Notes under the pieces: model-generated
Database searches by the model: none
The model's input: the letters and a program-made list of their open reading frames with translations, nothing else
Told to the model about the DNA's origin: nothing
Assembly: GCA_024654485.1 (NCBI GenBank)
Contig: JANLHO010000049.1
Span: 1 to 32,848 of the forward strand
Direction: 5' to 3'
From: Patescibacteria group bacterium
GTDB lineage: Bacteria > Patescibacteriota > Minisyncoccia > Phycocordibacterales > UBA2100
DNA: 32,848 bases
Made by a program: the position numbers and the translations under genes
Part shown: positions 9,753 through 22,194 of the stretch, one piece after another
Numbering within the stretch: position 1 is the stretch's first letter
Layout: each line of letters opens with the position of its first letter

Positions 9753-11000
9753 ATGCGACAATCAAAGCTCTTCACCTCCACGAGGCGCAACGCACCGAAG
9801 GACGAGGTGGTCAGGAACGCCGAGCTTCTCATACGCGGCGGTTTCATACATAAGGAAATGGCGGGCGTGTATTCTTATCTGCCGCTGGGGCTTCGCGTCC
9901 TCCACAAGATAGAGCAGATAATCCGCGAGGAGATGGATGCCGTAGGCGGACAAGAGGTTCGCATGGCGACACTGCATCCGAGCGATAATTGGAAGAAGAC
10001 GGGCGGGTGGAGCAGCGTGGACGTCTTGTTCAAGATACAAAGCCGTACGGAAAAAGAATACGCTCTCGGTTCCAGCGAGGAAGAGATAGTTACTCCGATA
10101 GCGCAAGAATATATAGGCTCGTACAAGGATTTGCCTCTCGCCGTCTACCAGATAGAGCAGAAATATCGTGACGAGTTGCGCGCAAAGAGCGGTATTATGC
10201 GCGGACGCGAATTCGGCATGAAAGACATGTACAGCTTTCACGCCGACCAGAAAGACTTTGAGCGGTTTTATGAGACGGTCAAACAGGCCTACTTCAAGGT
10301 CTTTGAGCGCTGCGGGCTGGATGCCAAGGTGACGGAAGCTTCCGGAGGCGCCTTCTCCAACAAGCTCTCATACGAATTCATGGTGCTCACGGACGCCGGC
10401 GAGGACGACATTCTCTACTGCGGCCAGTGCACGCACTGCGTCAACGTGGAGGTCGCGAAGCACGCGGCAGGGGATACATGCCCGAAGTGCGGCAAGGGCA
10501 AGCTAAAAAAAGCGCGAGCCGCGGAAGTTGGCAACGTATTTGATCTGGGACAGCGGTACCCGAAAAGCTTCGGCTTCACCTTCAAAGACAAAGACGGGAA
10601 AGACAAGACGCCTGTCATGGGCTGCTACGGGATCGGAACGACGCGCCTCATGGGTACGATAGTGGAGGTACTCTCCGACGATAAAGGAATCGTATGGCCG
10701 GCGACCGTCGCGCCTTTTTCGGTCCACCTCGTCGCCATTGCCGGAGGCAACGCGGACGTTACCGCCGAGGCCGACCGCGTGTACGAACTTCTATGCGAGA
10801 ACGGCATCCCGGCCCTCTACGACGACCGCGACGAGCGTGCGGGCGCAAAATTCGCCGATGCCGACCTCATAGGCATCCCAAAGCGGCTGGTCGTTTCGGA
10901 GAAAACGGTCTCGGCGGGCGGAATAGAGGTGACGGATCGCTCAAACGGCTCCTCTACGCTCGTCGCCGACAGCGCGATAGTTGAACATTTGCGGATGTGA
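9753..11000 (+). CDS. proS: proline--tRNA ligase (short bacterial type without INS editing domain)
   Basis: MRQSKLF, GVYSYLPLG, KYRDELRAKSGIMRGREFGMKDMYSF, EVGNVFDLG, MGCYGIG, anticodon domain DDRDERAGAKFADADLIG. Confidence 0.96.
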   Translation: MRQSKLFTSTRRNAPKDEVVRNAELLIRGGFIHKEMAGVYSYLPLGLRVLHKIEQIIREEMDAVGGQEVRMATLHPSDNWKKTGGWSSVDVLFKIQSRTEKEYALGSSEEEIVTPIAQEYIGSYKDLPLAVYQIEQKYRDELRAKSGIMRGREFGMKDMYSFHADQKDFERFYETVKQAYFKVFERCGLDAKVTEASGGAFSNKLSYEFMVLTDAGEDDILYCGQCTHCVNVEVAKHAAGDTCPKCGKGKLKKARAAEVGNVFDLGQRYPKSFGFTFKDKDGKDKTPVMGCYGIGTTRLMGTIVEVLSDDKGIVWPATVAPFSVHLVAIAGGNADVTAEADRVYELLCENGIPALYDDRDERAGAKFADADLIGIPKRLVVSEKTVSAGGIEVTDRSNGSSTLVADSAIVEHLRM

Positions 11001-18840: not shown

Positions 18841-18911
18841 TGGACTTACCGGGAATCGAACCCGGGACTCGGCAATGCGAATGCCGCGTAATGCCACTTT
18901 ACTATAAGCCC
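18841..18911 (-). tRNA. tRNA-Ala(CGC)
   Basis: Acceptor GGGCTTA/TAAGTCC with G3:U70, anticodon arm CGGCA-TTCGCAT-TGCCG, T-loop GGTTCGATT. Confidence 0.93.
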
Positions 18912-18956
18912 TAGTGAGGAACGAAAATGGAAGCTTGCTTTCATTTTCTCCGAACG
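18912..18956 (-). repeat. 45-bp tRNA-abutting element, copy 1
   Basis: CGTTCGGAGAAAATGAAAGCAAGCTTCCATTTTCGTTCCTCACTA; 44/45 identical to 20110-20154; ends exactly at tRNA base 1. Confidence 0.9.
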
Positions 18957-19018
18957 ACGGGTTTATATCGTGAGATATAAGCCCGTGCGCAGAAATATAC
19001 CAGATACGGGAGCCGCGC

Positions 19019-19489
19019 TCAATTGATGAGCCAGATGTGGAGATTGAGATAGCCGGCAAATAGTATCCATGCGAGGTACGGCATTAGGAGATAGGCGGCG
19101 CGACGGTCTACCTCAAACGCGCCGATGATGAGCGAGAGTATTATGAATGCGAGGAAGAGGATGGCTATGAATGCGATAAATACCGCGTGAAGCGAGAAGA
19201 AGAAAAGCGTCCACGCCGCGTTGAAAAGGAGCTGGACGAAGTAGAAGCGCACCCAGCCCTCCACATGCGGCTCAAACGGCCTGTGATTCCATACGATAGA
19301 AAGGGCCATCGCCATGAGCGCATAGAGGATTAGCCACACCAGAGAAAATGCGGCATCCGGCGGCGTAAGCGAGGGCTTCACGAGCTGCGAGTACCATGAG
19401 CCGGCCTGCGTGTCTATGAGGAGATAGCCGATGAACCCTGCAGTATATGTGGCGACAAACGCTACTGCAGTCCGCGTCGTCGCCTTCAT
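19019..19489 (-). CDS. tspO: TspO/MBR tryptophan-rich sensory protein
   Basis: WYSQLVKPSLTPP..AF..VW.ILY.LM, QLLFNAAWT.FFF, LLMPYLAW..FA..LN. Confidence 0.93.
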   Translation of the reverse strand: MKATTRTAVAFVATYTAGFIGYLLIDTQAGSWYSQLVKPSLTPPDAAFSLVWLILYALMAMALSIVWNHRPFEPHVEGWVRFYFVQLLFNAAWTLFFFSLHAVFIAFIAILFLAFIILSLIIGAFEVDRRAAYLLMPYLAWILFAGYLNLHIWLIN

Positions 19490-19596
19490 GTCTTAAGCAT
19501 ATTTCACCGGAGAGGCAAAAATCGCGTTATCCACAGATGCCAAATCGGCGCATAGCGGCTTCCCAGCACGCGATAAATAGATTATCCTGCTCGGAC

Positions 19597-19670
19597 GCAC
19601 CCTTAGCTCAGTTGGTTAGAGCGTTCGATTCACATTCGAAAGGTCTCAGGTTCAAATCCTGAAGGGTGCA
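19597..19670 (+). tRNA. tRNA-Val(CAC)
   Basis: Acceptor GCACCCT/AGGGTGC, D arm TAGCTCAGTTGGTTAGAGC, anticodon arm TTCGA-TTCACAT-TCGAA, T-loop GGTTCAAAT. Confidence 0.92.
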
Positions 19671-19752
19671 CCCGCCTTCGCCGTTTTCGGCGGAGTGCGG
19701 CGCGAGTCCACCATTTGGCCGGTAGTGCGCACGCCGGTTTCGGAGGCTCTGT

Positions 19753-19815
19753 CGGGCTGTAGTATACCTCGGTAGCACAACGCTTCGCGTTGGCTACGGG
19801 GCAAGCCGGTAGTAC
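19753..19815 (+). pseudogene. 5' fragment of a tRNA-Pro(GGG)-like gene, interrupted in the D-loop by a palindrome
   Basis: CGGGCTGTAGTATACC (identical to 20155-20170), insertion, then CCGGTAGTAC. Confidence 0.8.
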
Positions 19816-19851
19816 TTTACAAGACGTGGCGTGAGTGGGGGGTTCTTTTGC

Positions 19852-19922
19852 CGGGGTGTAGTATACCGGTAGTACGCACGCTTCGGGTGCGTGTAGACCG
19901 GGTTCGATTCCCGGCACCCCGA
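19852..19922 (+). tRNA. tRNA-Pro(CGG)
   Basis: Acceptor CGGGGTG/CACCCCG, anticodon arm CACGC-TTCGGGT-GCGTG, T-loop GGTTCGATT. Confidence 0.93.
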
Positions 19923-19966
19923 CAAAAGAACCCCGCTATCGTGCGTACAGTCTTCAGTAGTACAGA

Positions 19967-20027
19967 GGGTTCGACCTGTGCTCCGTAGGCAAACGAAGTT
20001 TGTCCTTCGGGGTTCCCGGCAGCCCGA
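19967..20027 (+). pseudogene. 3' fragment of a tRNA-Pro(GGG)-like gene, interrupted in the T-loop by a palindrome
   Basis: GGGTTCGA, 38-nt insertion (19975-20012), then TTCCCGGCAGCCCGA (identical to 20211-20225). Confidence 0.8.
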
Positions 20028-20109
20028 CAGAGCCTCTGAGAAAGTATTTATGCGGTGCAGAATCATTTTCGTTCCTCACTACGGGCTGTAAGCAAGCTTT
20101 CAGCCCGGG

Positions 20110-20154
20110 CGTTCGGAGAAAATGAAAGCAAGCTTCCATTTTCGCTCCTCACTA
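20110..20154 (+). repeat. 45-bp tRNA-abutting element, copy 2 (partial third copy at 20064-20081)
   Basis: 44/45 identical to the reverse complement of 18912-18956; ends exactly at base 1 of tRNA-Pro(GGG). Confidence 0.9.
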
Positions 20155-20225
20155 CGGGCTGTAGTATACCGGTAGTACGCACGCATGGGGTGCGTGTAGA
20201 CCGGGTTCGATTCCCGGCAGCCCGA
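20155..20225 (+). tRNA. tRNA-Pro(GGG)
   Basis: Acceptor CGGGCTG/CAGCCCG, anticodon arm CACGC-ATGGGGT-GCGTG, T-loop GGTTCGATT. Confidence 0.93.
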
Positions 20226-20261
20226 ATCAAAATCGGCATTTGCAGTGCACCAGGTGCTATA

Positions 20262-20296
20262 CCCCACACCAGCTTTGCCGCAAAGTTGGTGTGGGG
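20262..20296. repeat. REP-like palindrome CCCCACACCAGCTTTGC-C-GCAAAGTTGGTGTGGGG
   Basis: 16/17 complementary arms; similar to 5629-5658; abuts the TATACT box upstream of prs. Confidence 0.75.
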
Positions 20297-20311
20297 GTAT
20301 ACTGGGCTCTC

Positions 20312-21283
20312 ATGGAGTACAAGATATTCAGCCTCGGCTCCAACGACAGCCTCGCGCAGAGGATATCCGACAAGTTGGAGCTTCCCCTGGGGAAGGTAAA
20401 ATGCCGCTCATTCTCCGACGGCGAGCAGCAGGTGCAATTCTTGGAAAATCTGCGGGGCAAGAGCATCTTCCTCGTCCAATCCACCAATCCTCCCGCCGAG
20501 AACTGGGTCCGGCTTCTTCTCGCGATAGACGCTGCGCGCGGAGCTTCGGCGCGAGAGATCACGGTCGTCGCACCATACTTCGGATATTCGCGGCAGGACC
20601 GCAAATCGCGCCCGCGCGAGCCTATCTCGGCGCGCGTCTTCGCGACGACGCTTGAGAGCCTCGGCGCCACTCGCTTCCTAACGATGGATCTGCACAACGA
20701 CGCCATCGGCGGATTTTTCCGCAAGACCATCGTAGACAATCTCTACGCGCGCCGCGACTTCATCGGACATTTTCGCGAGGTCTTCAAGGAAGCGCTTGAT
20801 GGGGACGACCTCGTAGTCGTCTCACCGGATGCCGGAGGCGTGGTACGCGCGCAATCATACGCCAAGCGACTCATGCGCTCGGCCGACCTAGCCATCATCC
20901 ATAAGCAGCGCGAGGTCCCGAATCAGGTCGCCAGCATGAAGCTCATCGGCGACGTCAAAGGCAAGGTCGCGCTCATCGTGGACGATATGGCCGACACGTG
21001 CGGGACGCTCGCGCGCGCGGCGGAGCTCTTGCAGGAGAATGGAGCGCGCGAGGTGTATGCCGCCGCGACGCACGGCCTGCTCTCCGGCGACGCGCTCGCT
21101 ACGATAGGGAACTCTCCGATCAAGAAACTTTTCATCACAGACACCATCTCCACCGACCGCGAGCTCGGCGACAAGGTAGAGGTCGTCTCGGTGGGGGAGA
21201 CTTTCGGCGATGCCATTGATCGCATAGAAACGGGAGAGAGCCTAAGCGCCCTCTTCCAGACCGACGAGGACGACGAGAAGTAA
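20312..21283 (+). CDS. prs: ribose-phosphate pyrophosphokinase
   Basis: FSDGE, PYFGYSRQDRK, MDLH, VSPDAGGV.RA, IVDDMADTCGTL, ATHG. Confidence 0.97.
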   Translation: MEYKIFSLGSNDSLAQRISDKLELPLGKVKCRSFSDGEQQVQFLENLRGKSIFLVQSTNPPAENWVRLLLAIDAARGASAREITVVAPYFGYSRQDRKSRPREPISARVFATTLESLGATRFLTMDLHNDAIGGFFRKTIVDNLYARRDFIGHFREVFKEALDGDDLVVVSPDAGGVVRAQSYAKRLMRSADLAIIHKQREVPNQVASMKLIGDVKGKVALIVDDMADTCGTLARAAELLQENGAREVYAAATHGLLSGDALATIGNSPIKKLFITDTISTDRELGDKVEVVSVGETFGDAIDRIETGESLSALFQTDEDDEK

Positions 21284-21447: not shown

Positions 21448-21559
21448 GGGCCTATAGTATAGCGGTACCCGCCCGAACGACTGACGTCGTTCAGTCGGGC
21501 GGGGAACGCCTCCACCCGCCCGAACGTACCGTTCGGTACGGGCGGGTGGCATGGTGGAG
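21448..21559 (+). pseudogene. duplicate of the 5' 44 nt of tRNA-Ala(GGC), interrupted by two palindromic insertions
   Basis: GGGCCTATAGTATAGCGGTA [36 nt, 21468-21503] GAACGCCTCCA [32 nt, 21515-21546] TGGCATGGTGGAG. With the insertions removed it is 43/44 identical to 21796-21839. Confidence 0.9.
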
Positions 21560-21562
21560 CCT

Positions 21563-21805
21563 ATGGTATACACAGTCTACGTCTTGAAGGACGATCTAAA
21601 CAGGTTGTATAAGGGTATGACGAAGAATCTCTCTGGCCGTATCGCTCAACACAAGAATGGCCATACGATAACCACAGCAAAAATGAAGAATTTGCGCGTT
21701 GCATATACCGAGGAATTTGATAACTTTGAGGGCGCAAGGAAGCGCGAATTGTATTTCAAATCTGCAGCGGGCAGGCGTTTTCTGAAGAAAAAACTGGGCC
21801 TATAG
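21563..21805 (+). CDS. stand-alone GIY-YIG nuclease (UPF0213/YhbQ-like), 80 aa
   Basis: YTVYVL...LYKGMTKNL..RIAQHKNG...T.K...YTEEF....ARKRELYFKS..GR. The stop codon lies inside the downstream tRNA. Confidence 0.92.
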   Translation: MVYTVYVLKDDLNRLYKGMTKNLSGRIAQHKNGHTITTAKMKNLRVAYTEEFDNFEGARKRELYFKSAAGRRFLKKKLGL

Positions 21806-21866
21806 TATAGCGGTAGAACGCCTCCATGGCATGGAGGAGGTCGGGGTTCGACTCCCCGTAGGTCCA
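21796..21866 (+). tRNA. tRNA-Ala(GGC)
   Basis: Acceptor GGGCCTA/TAGGTCC with G3:U70, anticodon arm CCTCC-ATGGCAT-GGAGG, T-loop GGTTCGACT. Confidence 0.93.
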
Positions 21867-22194
21867 CAAAAATAAGGAGAACATCCCGAAGCGATTAATC
21901 TTCGCACGCGGCGCGTGCGTGGTGGCTTTGTACTCTGCCTCACGATTCGACTTCGTGCCGACTCTCTCGGGCGCGCGAGTACGCCACGCCCTCGGCCCCC
22001 GCCCCGCCGCCAATCCTCTCCGCCAAAGGCGGACAGGCATTCTCATCTATTTCGCGGGGGGATTTGAAAAAAGGAATGGGCGGCAGGAGGCAGGGTCGGC
22101 TTCCATTCTCGAAAATTAAATTCTAGATTCGGTGTCTAACACGGGGCCCACTATTAGTGACGAATGTGATATATAAAGTATAATGACACCCCAT

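Follow-up and report, generated by a model that had tools for sequence, protein, structure and literature searches.

Nested proline tRNA genes in a Patescibacteria group bacterium and their possible origin through a small enzyme-less replacement cassette

Several described systems place fragments of tRNA genes beside intact ones or interrupt tRNA genes with inserted DNA, and they resemble in part the locus reported here, which lies in a 32,848-nucleotide stretch of DNA from a Patescibacteria group bacterium (hereafter the window; coordinates are counted from its first letter unless a contig is named). At this locus an intact tRNA-Pro(CGG) gene is enclosed by the 5′ and 3′ pieces of a second, broken proline tRNA, referred to below as the shell, and is flanked directly by complementary leader and trailer arms that lengthen its acceptor stem. 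The best reading of this nest, which we consider moderately probable, is that a small cassette without an enzyme gene has repeatedly replaced the resident tRNA-Pro(CGG) gene by inserting into it.

Genomic islands, prophages and pNOB8-type plasmids integrate at tRNA genes, and they are comparable to the nest in that partial copies stand beside an intact tRNA gene and in that some or all of the sequence of this intact gene derives from the incoming DNA; for Caldiarchaeum, PMC3293823 describes a 1.8-kb recombinase element together with a 5′ fragment of tRNA-Thr and a replacement tRNA. Unlike these elements, the proline insert measures about 100–270 nt rather than kilobases, has no integrase or recombinase in or beside it, carries a whole tRNA and leaves both 5′ and 3′ remnants, and the nest is recursive and bounded by a stem that extends the acceptor. 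A second group of relevant systems comprises the free-standing homing endonucleases, for which the GIY-YIG Seg proteins of phage T4, including SegB in a tRNA cluster, and ‘fractured genes’ are described (PMC2988022, PMC13096335, PMC2677866). The likeness is that at one tRNA-Ala and one tRNA-Ser of the source genome a GIY-YIG gene separates the intact gene from a 5′ fragment of it, and that a break-and-copy process would explain insertion at a defined site of a conserved gene. The differences are that the proline nest contains no open reading frame (ORF), that the GIY-YIG proteins of 84–150 residues are only predicted to cleave, and that an intact inner tRNA would retain any target lying within the tRNA.

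As in miniature inverted-repeat transposable elements (MITEs), the inner unit has terminal inverted repeats (12/12 in the arms; 20 nt at 95% with the acceptor stem), but the arms of each tRNA cassette are unique to that tRNA, with no dispersed copies having the same termini in the source genome. MITEs and the repetitive extragenic palindromic (REP) and REPIN elements are also short, non-coding and hairpin-forming, and the family to which the insert in the shell D-loop belongs has at least eight copies in the source genome. With regard to the REP-associated tyrosine transposases (RAYTs), the genome has two Y1-transposase-like genes, whose REP-associated match falls below the cut-off and which are not flanked by the hairpins. 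Unlike in MITE and REP systems, no clear target-site duplication was observed, and most hairpin copies are positioned on gene starts beside duplicate first codons.

Disrupted tRNA genes are described in Archaea and red algae, where multiple bulge-helix-bulge introns, split genes and permuted genes occur and a mobile-element origin has been proposed for the interruptions (PMC4390854, PMC4033280, PMC3728597). The proline shell is likewise interrupted, in the D-loop, the anticodon region and the T-loop, whereas the host is a bacterium without a detected splicing endonuclease or RtcB, the shell cannot rejoin into a tRNA, and the middle ‘intron’ is itself a working gene. With the helices of pre-tRNA processing the nest shares a helix that continues the acceptor stem and is maintained through compensatory substitutions. 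In the literature searched, no description of nested bacterial tRNA genes was found, nor was the replacement of a tRNA gene by an enzyme-less cassette found as a route.

Anatomy of the nest and its layers

The source genome, designated G000, comprises 820 kb in 60 contigs with 97.7% completeness and 56% G+C, and the window is its contig C60; the other genomes, mostly of the same genus, are likewise given G-numbers and the collected loci L-numbers. Six tRNA genes, including Val(CAC), Pro(CGG) and Pro(GGG), were called in the window by ARAGORN and Rfam. Among the 44 tRNA genes of G000 three serve proline (UGG, CGG and GGG), and the nested gene is the sole CGG decoder detected in this genome. A strong proline match was present in 104 of 116 genomes of the genus, and 62 loci with an intact Pro(CGG) form the comparison set, from which a gapless alignment of 61 genus loci (G000 and 60 relatives, with the other-genus locus and a duplicate row excluded) was made.

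All features of the nest are on the forward strand. At its centre, as layer 3, stands the intact tRNA-Pro(CGG) (19852–19922), which both programs call (19852–19922/3; 57.3 bits against a gathering score of 29); it has the GTG/CAC acceptor allele, does not encode CCA and, across the 61 genus sequences, has all four cloverleaf stems paired in 100% of cells. A leader arm (19839–19850) and a trailer arm (19923–19934) lengthen its acceptor stem by 12 bp, with base −1 (19851) opposite discriminator A73; the arms alone match 12/12, and together with the acceptor stem they form an inner inverted repeat (19839–19858/19915–19934) of 20 nt at 95%.

This unit occupies the place of the anticodon arm of the layer-2 shell (19753–20027). 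The shell opens with tRNA positions 1–16 (19753–19768), consisting of the acceptor 5′ strand, positions 8–9, the D-stem 5′ strand and the start of the D-loop; the segment has the CTG acceptor allele and was recovered when the inner tRNA was compared with its flanks by BLAST (positions 1–16 at −99, 93.7%), 19750–19768 being 89% identical to the inner copy. A 38-nt hairpin of a dispersed REP-like family interrupts the D-loop (19769–19806; −20.7 kcal/mol, z −3.81) and is followed by the remaining D-loop and the D-stem 3′ strand (19807–19815, CGGTAGTAC), where tRNA positions 15–24 match at −46 over 10 nt at 100%. The shell anticodon-stem 5′ strand is replaced by a linker (19816–19838), which pairs imperfectly with 19935–19959 in the minimum-energy fold. 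Beyond the inner unit, the 3′ side of the shell (19935–19974) contains a rearranged anticodon-stem 3′ strand, with GTGCGT at 19942–19947 and a second GTAGTAC, and then the variable region, T-stem 5′ strand and T-loop start (19960–19974, 80% identical to the inner tRNA segment). A second 38-nt hairpin lies in the T-loop (19975–20012; −16.3 kcal/mol, z −2.34), and the shell closes with the T-loop end, T-stem 3′ strand, acceptor 3′ strand and discriminator (20013–20027), 20013–20029 being 94% identical to the inner T-stem and acceptor 3′ end. The shell acceptor CGGGCTG at −99 is the perfect complement of the 3′ strand at +98. Outside it, the layer-2 leader arm (19740–19752) is partnered by a trailer arm (20028–20039) within an outer inverted repeat (19740–19759/20020–20039) that is again 20 nt at 95%. 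Farther upstream, layer 1, the outermost and oldest proline relic with its junction (19717–19739), retains a 5′ fragment of the D-arm and anticodon stem (19719–19734) with 94% identity to 19866–19881 of the inner tRNA, while its acceptor/D part and most of its 3′ half are lost.

The nest follows tRNA-Val(CAC) (19597–19672, forward strand, 73.3 bits, called by ARAGORN and Rfam), the first gene of a Val–Pro(CGG)–Pro(GGG) cluster whose order is conserved across the genus loci. Transcription into the nest possibly starts from this Val gene; in a scan of 19300–20400, neither a sigma-70-like promoter nor an intrinsic terminator was flagged in the interval from Val to Pro(GGG). The intact paralogue tRNA-Pro(GGG) (20155–20225, forward strand) lies about 230 nt from the nested gene and is 94% identical to it, so that the shell is not required as a GGG decoder. 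A first-pass annotation of the window had already described an intact Pro(CGG) inside the broken pieces of a second proline tRNA, palindromes of about 38 nt in the D- and T-loops of the latter, concentric inverted repeats and an upstream proline fragment, and all of these were borne out, the pieces being 80–94% identical to the intact gene. Its label ‘Pro(GGG)-like’ for the shell is unwarranted: the anticodon arm is lost, and the position is that of a former Pro(CGG) gene. The CTG/CAG acceptor allele of the shell occurs in intact Pro(CGG) genes of relatives, with U–A at that pair in 24 of 61.

The succession of layers is seen in comparison with G047. G000 19717–19759 aligns at 36 of 42 positions to the stretch that immediately precedes the intact Pro(CGG) of G047 (locus L026) and is made up of the end of a 5′ shell half and the leader arm, and 20020–20043 aligns at 19 of 24 positions to the G047 trailer together with the acceptor end, whereas the same query agrees with the outside of the G047 shell over 9 nt only. 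The broken shell of G000 thus stands where G047 has a working gene. The layer-2 leader arm is homologous to the leader arm of the intact G047 gene, and the outer helices of the two genomes, compared by eye, differ by two compensatory and two wobble changes, with both remaining fully paired. To judge from these alignments, the G000 locus is a structure of three layers, in which 19719–19734 is the remnant of a still older shell.

Comparable nests recur in the genus. Under a strict criterion, an upstream 7-nt segment of the CGGG… type had to be matched downstream by its exact complement followed by A. Such a perfect shell acceptor pair was found around the intact Pro(CGG) in ten of the 62 loci, nine of them at −49 to −99 and +44 to +170 and the tenth, at −179/+266, being doubtful; a control with the downstream flank reversed gave two of 62. 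By eye, worn nests were recognized in G058, G043, G008 and G064, and nests of several layers in G120/G129. The loci of G058 and G001 resemble a single site in a filled and an empty state: their outer arms and flanks are nearly identical letter by letter, and G058 is longer by about 160 nt in the middle. This additional stretch comprises a degenerate 5′ half, a new leader arm, the inner tRNA with its trailer arm, two small hairpins, and a 3′ half that is intact. G000 and G004 are 96% identical over 19839–19934, within a block of near-complete identity (about 19833–19934) that consists of leader arm, tRNA and trailer arm, and outside this block they agree only in tRNA-derived pieces. A short CAGTG repeat was seen by eye around the unit in G004 and G006, with nothing comparable in G000. 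A second nest with the same three-insert architecture was found in G000 itself, at tRNA-Gln(CTG) (contig C47, 379–450, reverse strand; region about 270–560), with a 14-bp leader/trailer stem, Gln-like shell pieces outside it, and hairpins of 35 nt in the D-loop and 32 nt in the T-loop.

The recurrence also bears on whether the arrangement could be an assembly chimera, produced when reads of several strains were joined in this metagenome-assembled genome. G000 is divided into 60 contigs, and no public sequencing run contains the locus: the best run contained a fraction of 0.14 of the sampled words, derived only from the tRNA bodies of relatives, and on mapping of four public runs the cover was limited to three tRNA bodies and again derived from relatives. 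The same nested architecture, however, is present in at least nine other, independently assembled genomes, some of only 5–10 contigs (e.g. G020 and G008), and the layers are distinct in sequence rather than collapsed repeats. An assembly artefact is therefore very improbable.

Acceptor alleles and replacement of the resident gene

The acceptor alleles of shell and inner tRNA differ in four of the nine strict nests (shell/inner CTG/GTG in G000, CCG/GTG in G004 and G073, and CCG/CTG in G006). The GTG allele has a flipped base pair relative to the common type, with G–C at that pair in nine of 61 sequences, and the tRNA that bears it is 100% identical over 71–72 nt in G000, G047, G004, G058, G073 and G043. 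On a uvrB plus typA tree (21 genomes, 1272 columns) the carriers of this allele require five changes under a mixture model and six under LG+G4, and a single clade of carriers, as tested under LG+G4, is rejected (ΔlnL 142, p-AU 4.3 × 10⁻⁵). A tree of the class-II aminoacyl-tRNA synthetase (aaRS) from 27 genomes requires seven changes and likewise rejects the single clade (p-AU 3.5 × 10⁻⁴⁰).

The aaRS tree was itself rejected as a species tree, as it groups G000 with G003, G055 and G067 and the uvrB plus typA tree does not, and the idea of a shell allele in agreement with ‘near’ relatives and an inner allele in agreement with ‘distant’ ones was dropped in that form. The gene prs gave no resolution as a marker, five relatives all being 71–77% identical. 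The class-II aaRS gene of G000 (9753–11000) is 75–78% identical to those of G003, G055 and G067 and 54–60% identical to those of 23 other genus members; since UvrB and TypA are 77–82% identical to all and do not group these four genomes, the aaRS gene probably has a separate, horizontal history.

A replacement cassette fits the anatomy of the nest, the differing alleles of shell and inner tRNA, the scattered occurrence of one identical allele and the common boundaries of the unit. Such a cassette, of about 100 nt in total, would comprise a complete tRNA-Pro(CGG) between a leader arm and the trailer arm complementary to it, and would enter the anticodon-loop region of the resident gene, which would thereby be split into a dead 5′ and 3′ shell while the cassette provides the working copy. 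A following cassette would then enter this new working copy, so that layers build up, three of them in G000, and the dead shells would be free to gain small hairpins in their D- and T-loops and to lose sequence. We infer that the cassette travels from one lineage to another as a unit. As for its insertion, we conjecture that a DNA break in the anticodon loop may be repaired from, or filled by, the incoming cassette; candidate enzymes in G000 are its two RAYT-like Y1 transposases and its small GIY-YIG nucleases.

A number of observations weigh against this reading. The genus is star-like, with 20 of the 20 relatives tested being 77–82% identical to G000 in uvrB plus typA, the aaRS and uvrB plus typA trees disagree on the place of G000, and the allele-switch counts consequently rest on weakly resolved trees; moreover, the clade tests were run after the trees had been seen, although the group of carriers was defined from the tRNA alone. 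The arms differ among genomes with an identical inner tRNA (e.g. G047 and G000), and the identity of the tRNA body may be due to constraint or gene conversion instead of recent transfer of the whole unit. The polarity of the G058/G001 pair is likewise not fixed by the comparison, as recombination between direct repeats (shell and inner copy) could also delete a nest. A family search of the neighbouring ORFs gave no nuclease or recombinase gene inside or adjoining the proline nest. Finally, the arms of the Pro cassette have no sequence in common with those of the Gln cassette, and none of the arms has a further copy in G000; there is thus no transposase-type terminal signal.

Several of these points suit a local origin without any mobile cassette, in which a quasi-palindrome breaks at the anticodon loop and produces nested self-duplications through fold-back synthesis, template switching or ectopic copying from the gene itself or from Pro(GGG), followed by neutral decay. 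Local self-duplication at a fragile quasi-palindrome is a serious rival, although we think it unlikely. In G006 the outer and inner arms are nearly alike (96% over 26 and 32 nt, arms plus tRNA pieces), an arrangement that local self-duplication would account for too; the paralogue Pro(GGG), a possible donor, is close at hand; the nest holds no enzyme gene; the Pro and Gln nests have no common terminal signal; and partial self-copies are frequent in this genome, same-strand self-pieces being found within 400 nt of 15 of its 44 tRNA genes (those of Pro(GGG) come from the Pro shell). What such an origin does not readily accommodate is that shell and inner acceptor alleles differ in nearly half of the strict nests, that the inner allele of G000 is identical in genomes which two protein data sets refuse to group, and that G000 and G004 have the unit, but not the surrounding shell, in common.

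The leader/trailer helix

Among 43 tRNAs of G000 tested, Pro(CGG) has the strongest leader–trailer duplex (−27.4 kcal/mol), followed by Gln(CTG) (−24.2 kcal/mol) and Thr(UGU) (−17.7 kcal/mol), and only those of Pro(CGG) and Gln(CTG) were rated strong. When the 14 pairs that continue the acceptor stem were followed through the 61 genus loci, pairing was found in 74.4% of cells, compared with 51.3% in shuffles and 43–45% with the partner slid, and the covariation score was 0.613, compared with 0.233 in shuffles, none of 500 shuffles being as high; changes on both sides occur at all 14 pairs. At least ten of the 14 pairs are formed in 42 of the 61 loci and seven or fewer in 17. The 42 helix-bearing loci contain 47 G·U/U·G against 17 A·C/C·A cells (two-sided binomial p = 2 × 10⁻⁴), a count that is uncorrected for relatedness. 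As a constraint on double-stranded DNA would be symmetric, the G·U excess indicates that selection acts on the tRNA-sense strand, whether in its RNA form or as single-stranded DNA, and of the two the helix more probably acts in RNA. It is also present in many loci that have no shell, and therefore travels with the gene and outlasts the shell.

Within the cassette reading, the helix under this sense-strand selection would most likely clamp the ends of the inner tRNA in the transcript, which would let the tRNA fold and be processed without mispairing with the look-alike halves of the shell. That the helix keeps the inner tRNA from such mispairing and offers ends for processing is a guess; G000 encodes RNase III and RNase P RNA. 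A 187-nt metatranscriptome contig from a relative (run X15; window 19844–19929) contains an inner tRNA, both arms and shell-like sequence, and hints that such precursors are transcribed, but carry-over of DNA could also explain it.

The first-pass annotation had offered two explanations, layered scars of tRNA-targeted insertion or a structured precursor of about 300 nt with the tRNA capping a long stem, and had called for a fold of the region and a search for covariation in its stems. As RNA, 19700–20060 folds at −186.8 kcal/mol (shuffle mean −137.3, s.d. 5.9; z −8.45; 0 of 100 shuffles equal) into a near-continuous single stem with the tRNA at its tip. Covariation was detected in the inner leader/trailer stem, whereas the shells differ and decay between genomes. 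The scar explanation is upheld by the three layers, by recurrence in the genus and by one pair of loci resembling filled and empty sites, except that the leader/trailer stem is no mere scar; the precursor explanation is upheld for that stem, which covaries and is present in 42 of 61 loci, and does not extend to the whole shell of about 300 nt.

A further account regards the whole composite as a selected RNA, that is, a long structured precursor serving processing (e.g. RNase III entry), stability or regulation, or a source of stable small RNAs. Covariation of the helix and its sense-strand tolerance of G·U are what such an RNA would display, the Pro and Gln insertions fall in three loops and not in stems, the shell acceptor pairs are perfectly complementary in nine nests despite decayed interiors, the processing enzyme RNase III and RNase P RNA are encoded, and the 187-nt contig, weak evidence given the possible carry-over of DNA, spans the inner tRNA, arms and bits of shell. 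Against these stand the lack of the strict acceptor pair in 52 of 62 loci and of the inner stem in 17 of 61, the divergence among genomes, in length as well as sequence, of the loop inserts and of the interior of the shell, and the T-loop insert of G000, which has no relative in the sequences searched. As the shells vary and decay among genomes and most loci have none, selection on the whole shell as RNA is unsupported, and we rate this account as improbable, below local rearrangement.

A shell with inserts at three loops also recalls the multi-intron tRNA genes described for Thermoproteales and Cyanidioschyzon, and it could be regarded as a bacterial tRNA gene with three introns (D-loop, anticodon and T-loop), of which the middle one holds a tRNA. 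In G000, however, neither RtcB (PF01139; control found in ten of 14 genomes) nor the tRNA splicing endonuclease (PF01974; control found in four archaeal genomes) gave any match. Once the inserts are taken out, no anticodon stem-loop is left in the shell and only three pairs of its T-stem remain; ARAGORN, allowing introns of 0–400 nt, called no shell in 13 sequences (G000 and the loci of 12 relatives) and only the inner tRNA in G000; and intact Pro(GGG) and Pro(UGG) genes are already present in the genome. The three-intron account is thus close to refuted and deserves scarcely any credence.

Hairpins, candidate enzymes and neighbouring sequences

The D-loop insert of the shell matches a hairpin family (nhmmer, E = 9.4 × 10⁻¹⁴) with eight loci in G000 at E ≤ 0.008, and three weaker loci look genuine by eye; in relatives there are one or two matching places per genome. 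The D-loop palindrome is therefore a member of a dispersed family and not private to the proline nest. The 5′ arm of the family and tRNA-Pro positions 16–24 share CGGTAG(T/C)AC, so that the D-loop junction is ambiguous, and the same likeness may explain why the outer shell of G047 has another family member at the same D-loop spot. The T-loop insert of G000 is an orphan with no other copy in G000 or in 40 relatives searched, and the corresponding T-loop position of the G004, G003 and G073 shells is occupied by insertions of unrelated sequence and length. An insert of about 100 nt that replaces the shell T-loop, across the T-arm, is common to G047 and G043 (L026 and L029), and shorter related T-arm inserts were seen at the same place in G064 and G120/G129 (L034, L037 and L039).

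Most hairpin copies in G000 lie 13–35 nt before the start codon of a housekeeping gene (typA, an epimerase gene, uvrB, leuS, smpB and dnaJ); they are located at C20:16363–16410 (L004:1496–1543) and C39:5584–5633 (L005:1498–1547) and also on contigs C52, C10, C56, C36 and C24. Each such hairpin is preceded by a duplicate of the start codon of the gene and its first 4–13 codons; in that of typA, 11 codons specify the same protein with ten of 33 bases differing. The short upstream frame reads through the hairpin, and in four of eight cases its stop codon overlaps the real start as ATGA. A search for 3′ remnants found none behind typA, uvrB, leuS and five other hairpin-bearing genes, which indicates that the two-sided nest is particular to tRNAs.

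Two ORFs of 221 and 222 residues (contigs C28 and C55) match Y1_Tnp above the Pfam cut-off (30.3 and 24.8 bits), and their best NCBIfam match is the REP-associated tyrosine transposase (REP_Tyr_transpos; 39 and 31 bits, under the cut-off of 80). They are candidates for moving the hairpins, and neither of their contigs has a hairpin hit. GIY-YIG domains gave eight matches in G000, seven of them in small genes. One of these, an ORF of 84 residues (21551–21805, 42.1 bits), lies between a tRNA-Ala(GGC) 5′ fragment and the intact gene, a second lies between a tRNA-Ser(GCT) 5′ fragment and the intact gene, and a third follows just after a 9-nt repeat of a tRNA-Met 3′ end. The Ala(GGC) fragment comprises tRNA positions 1–20 (21448–21467) and 21–31 (21504–21514) with a hairpin between them and a second hairpin after them, and the stop codon of the 84-residue ORF is inside the intact tRNA-Ala(GGC) (21796–21867). 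No Vsr or DUF559 nucleases were found in G000, and the single match to the tyrosine recombinase family PF00589 is on contig C56, not the contig of the nest. Of the protein-coding surroundings, the ORFs flanking the cluster encode an aldolase, a sigma factor, TspO, Prs and a methyltransferase, and those overlapping 19630–20139 have no protein family match.

These enzymes enter into a bolder form of the cassette reading, which we regard as possible and put forward tentatively: a ‘selfish tRNA gene’, which would be a mobile unit of a new kind. It would consist of a whole tRNA held by a structure-specific stem, with no enzyme and about 100 nt long, and would home into the anticodon-loop DNA of the resident isoacceptor across lineages of the ultra-small bacteria of the Candidate Phyla Radiation, inactivate that gene and take over its function. 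Each successful invader would become the next target, the stem would double as a boundary or hairpin in single-stranded DNA and as the RNA clamp, and the GIY-YIG nucleases or the RAYT-like transposases would supply the break in trans.

Further repeated sequences were observed around other tRNA genes. Many of the self-pieces are exact copies of the last 16–22 nt of the tRNA, located 108–210 nt downstream (Asn, Met, Asp, Glu, His and Ile), and tRNA-Phe has a 52-nt self-copy nearby. Upstream of Pro(GGG), a 27-nt direct repeat at 96% (20064–20090/20137–20163), made up of the 18 nt upstream of the gene and its first 9 nt, surrounds a 46-nt insert, part of which is antisense to the start of Pro(GGG) and forms a mini-helix (about 20082–20108, −15.5 kcal/mol). 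A module of about 50 nt upstream of Pro(GGG) also precedes tRNA-Ala(CGC) on the opposite strand (18886–18961; 76 nt, 84%), and the upstream module of Pro(GGG) is present in the relatives G003, G067 and G064. In many relatives tRNA-Val is followed, ahead of Pro(CGG), by a conserved element of about 100 nt that is structured. This element, which starts with GTGCA(A/G)GGCGGAGCG and ends with GTGACCAC, was found in L007, L009 (two copies), L010, L011, L013, L027, L028, L042 and L045 and is absent from the G000 site. An Rfam search of six loci at E ≤ 0.1 returned only tRNAs and chance plastid matches, leaving the hairpin family and this post-Val element unmatched.

In conclusion, this study describes a tRNA-Pro(CGG) gene that stands within the layered remains of proline tRNA genes and is framed by a covarying leader/trailer helix. 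This helix of 12–14 bp, found across the genus and constrained on the sense strand, is a testable feature of pre-tRNA. The shells, half-tRNAs and hairpins around 15 of the 44 tRNA genes of G000 would be missed or mis-called by standard annotation. The nests provide a bacterial, datable series that begins with the intact gene, passes through splitting at the anticodon loop and insertions into the other loops, and ends in loss; if the cassette reading is true, this series bears on the old question of whether interrupted and split tRNA genes stem from mobile insertions. If the cassette reading is true, single-copy tRNA genes of streamlined bacteria would be turned over horizontally by tiny cassettes that encode no enzyme.

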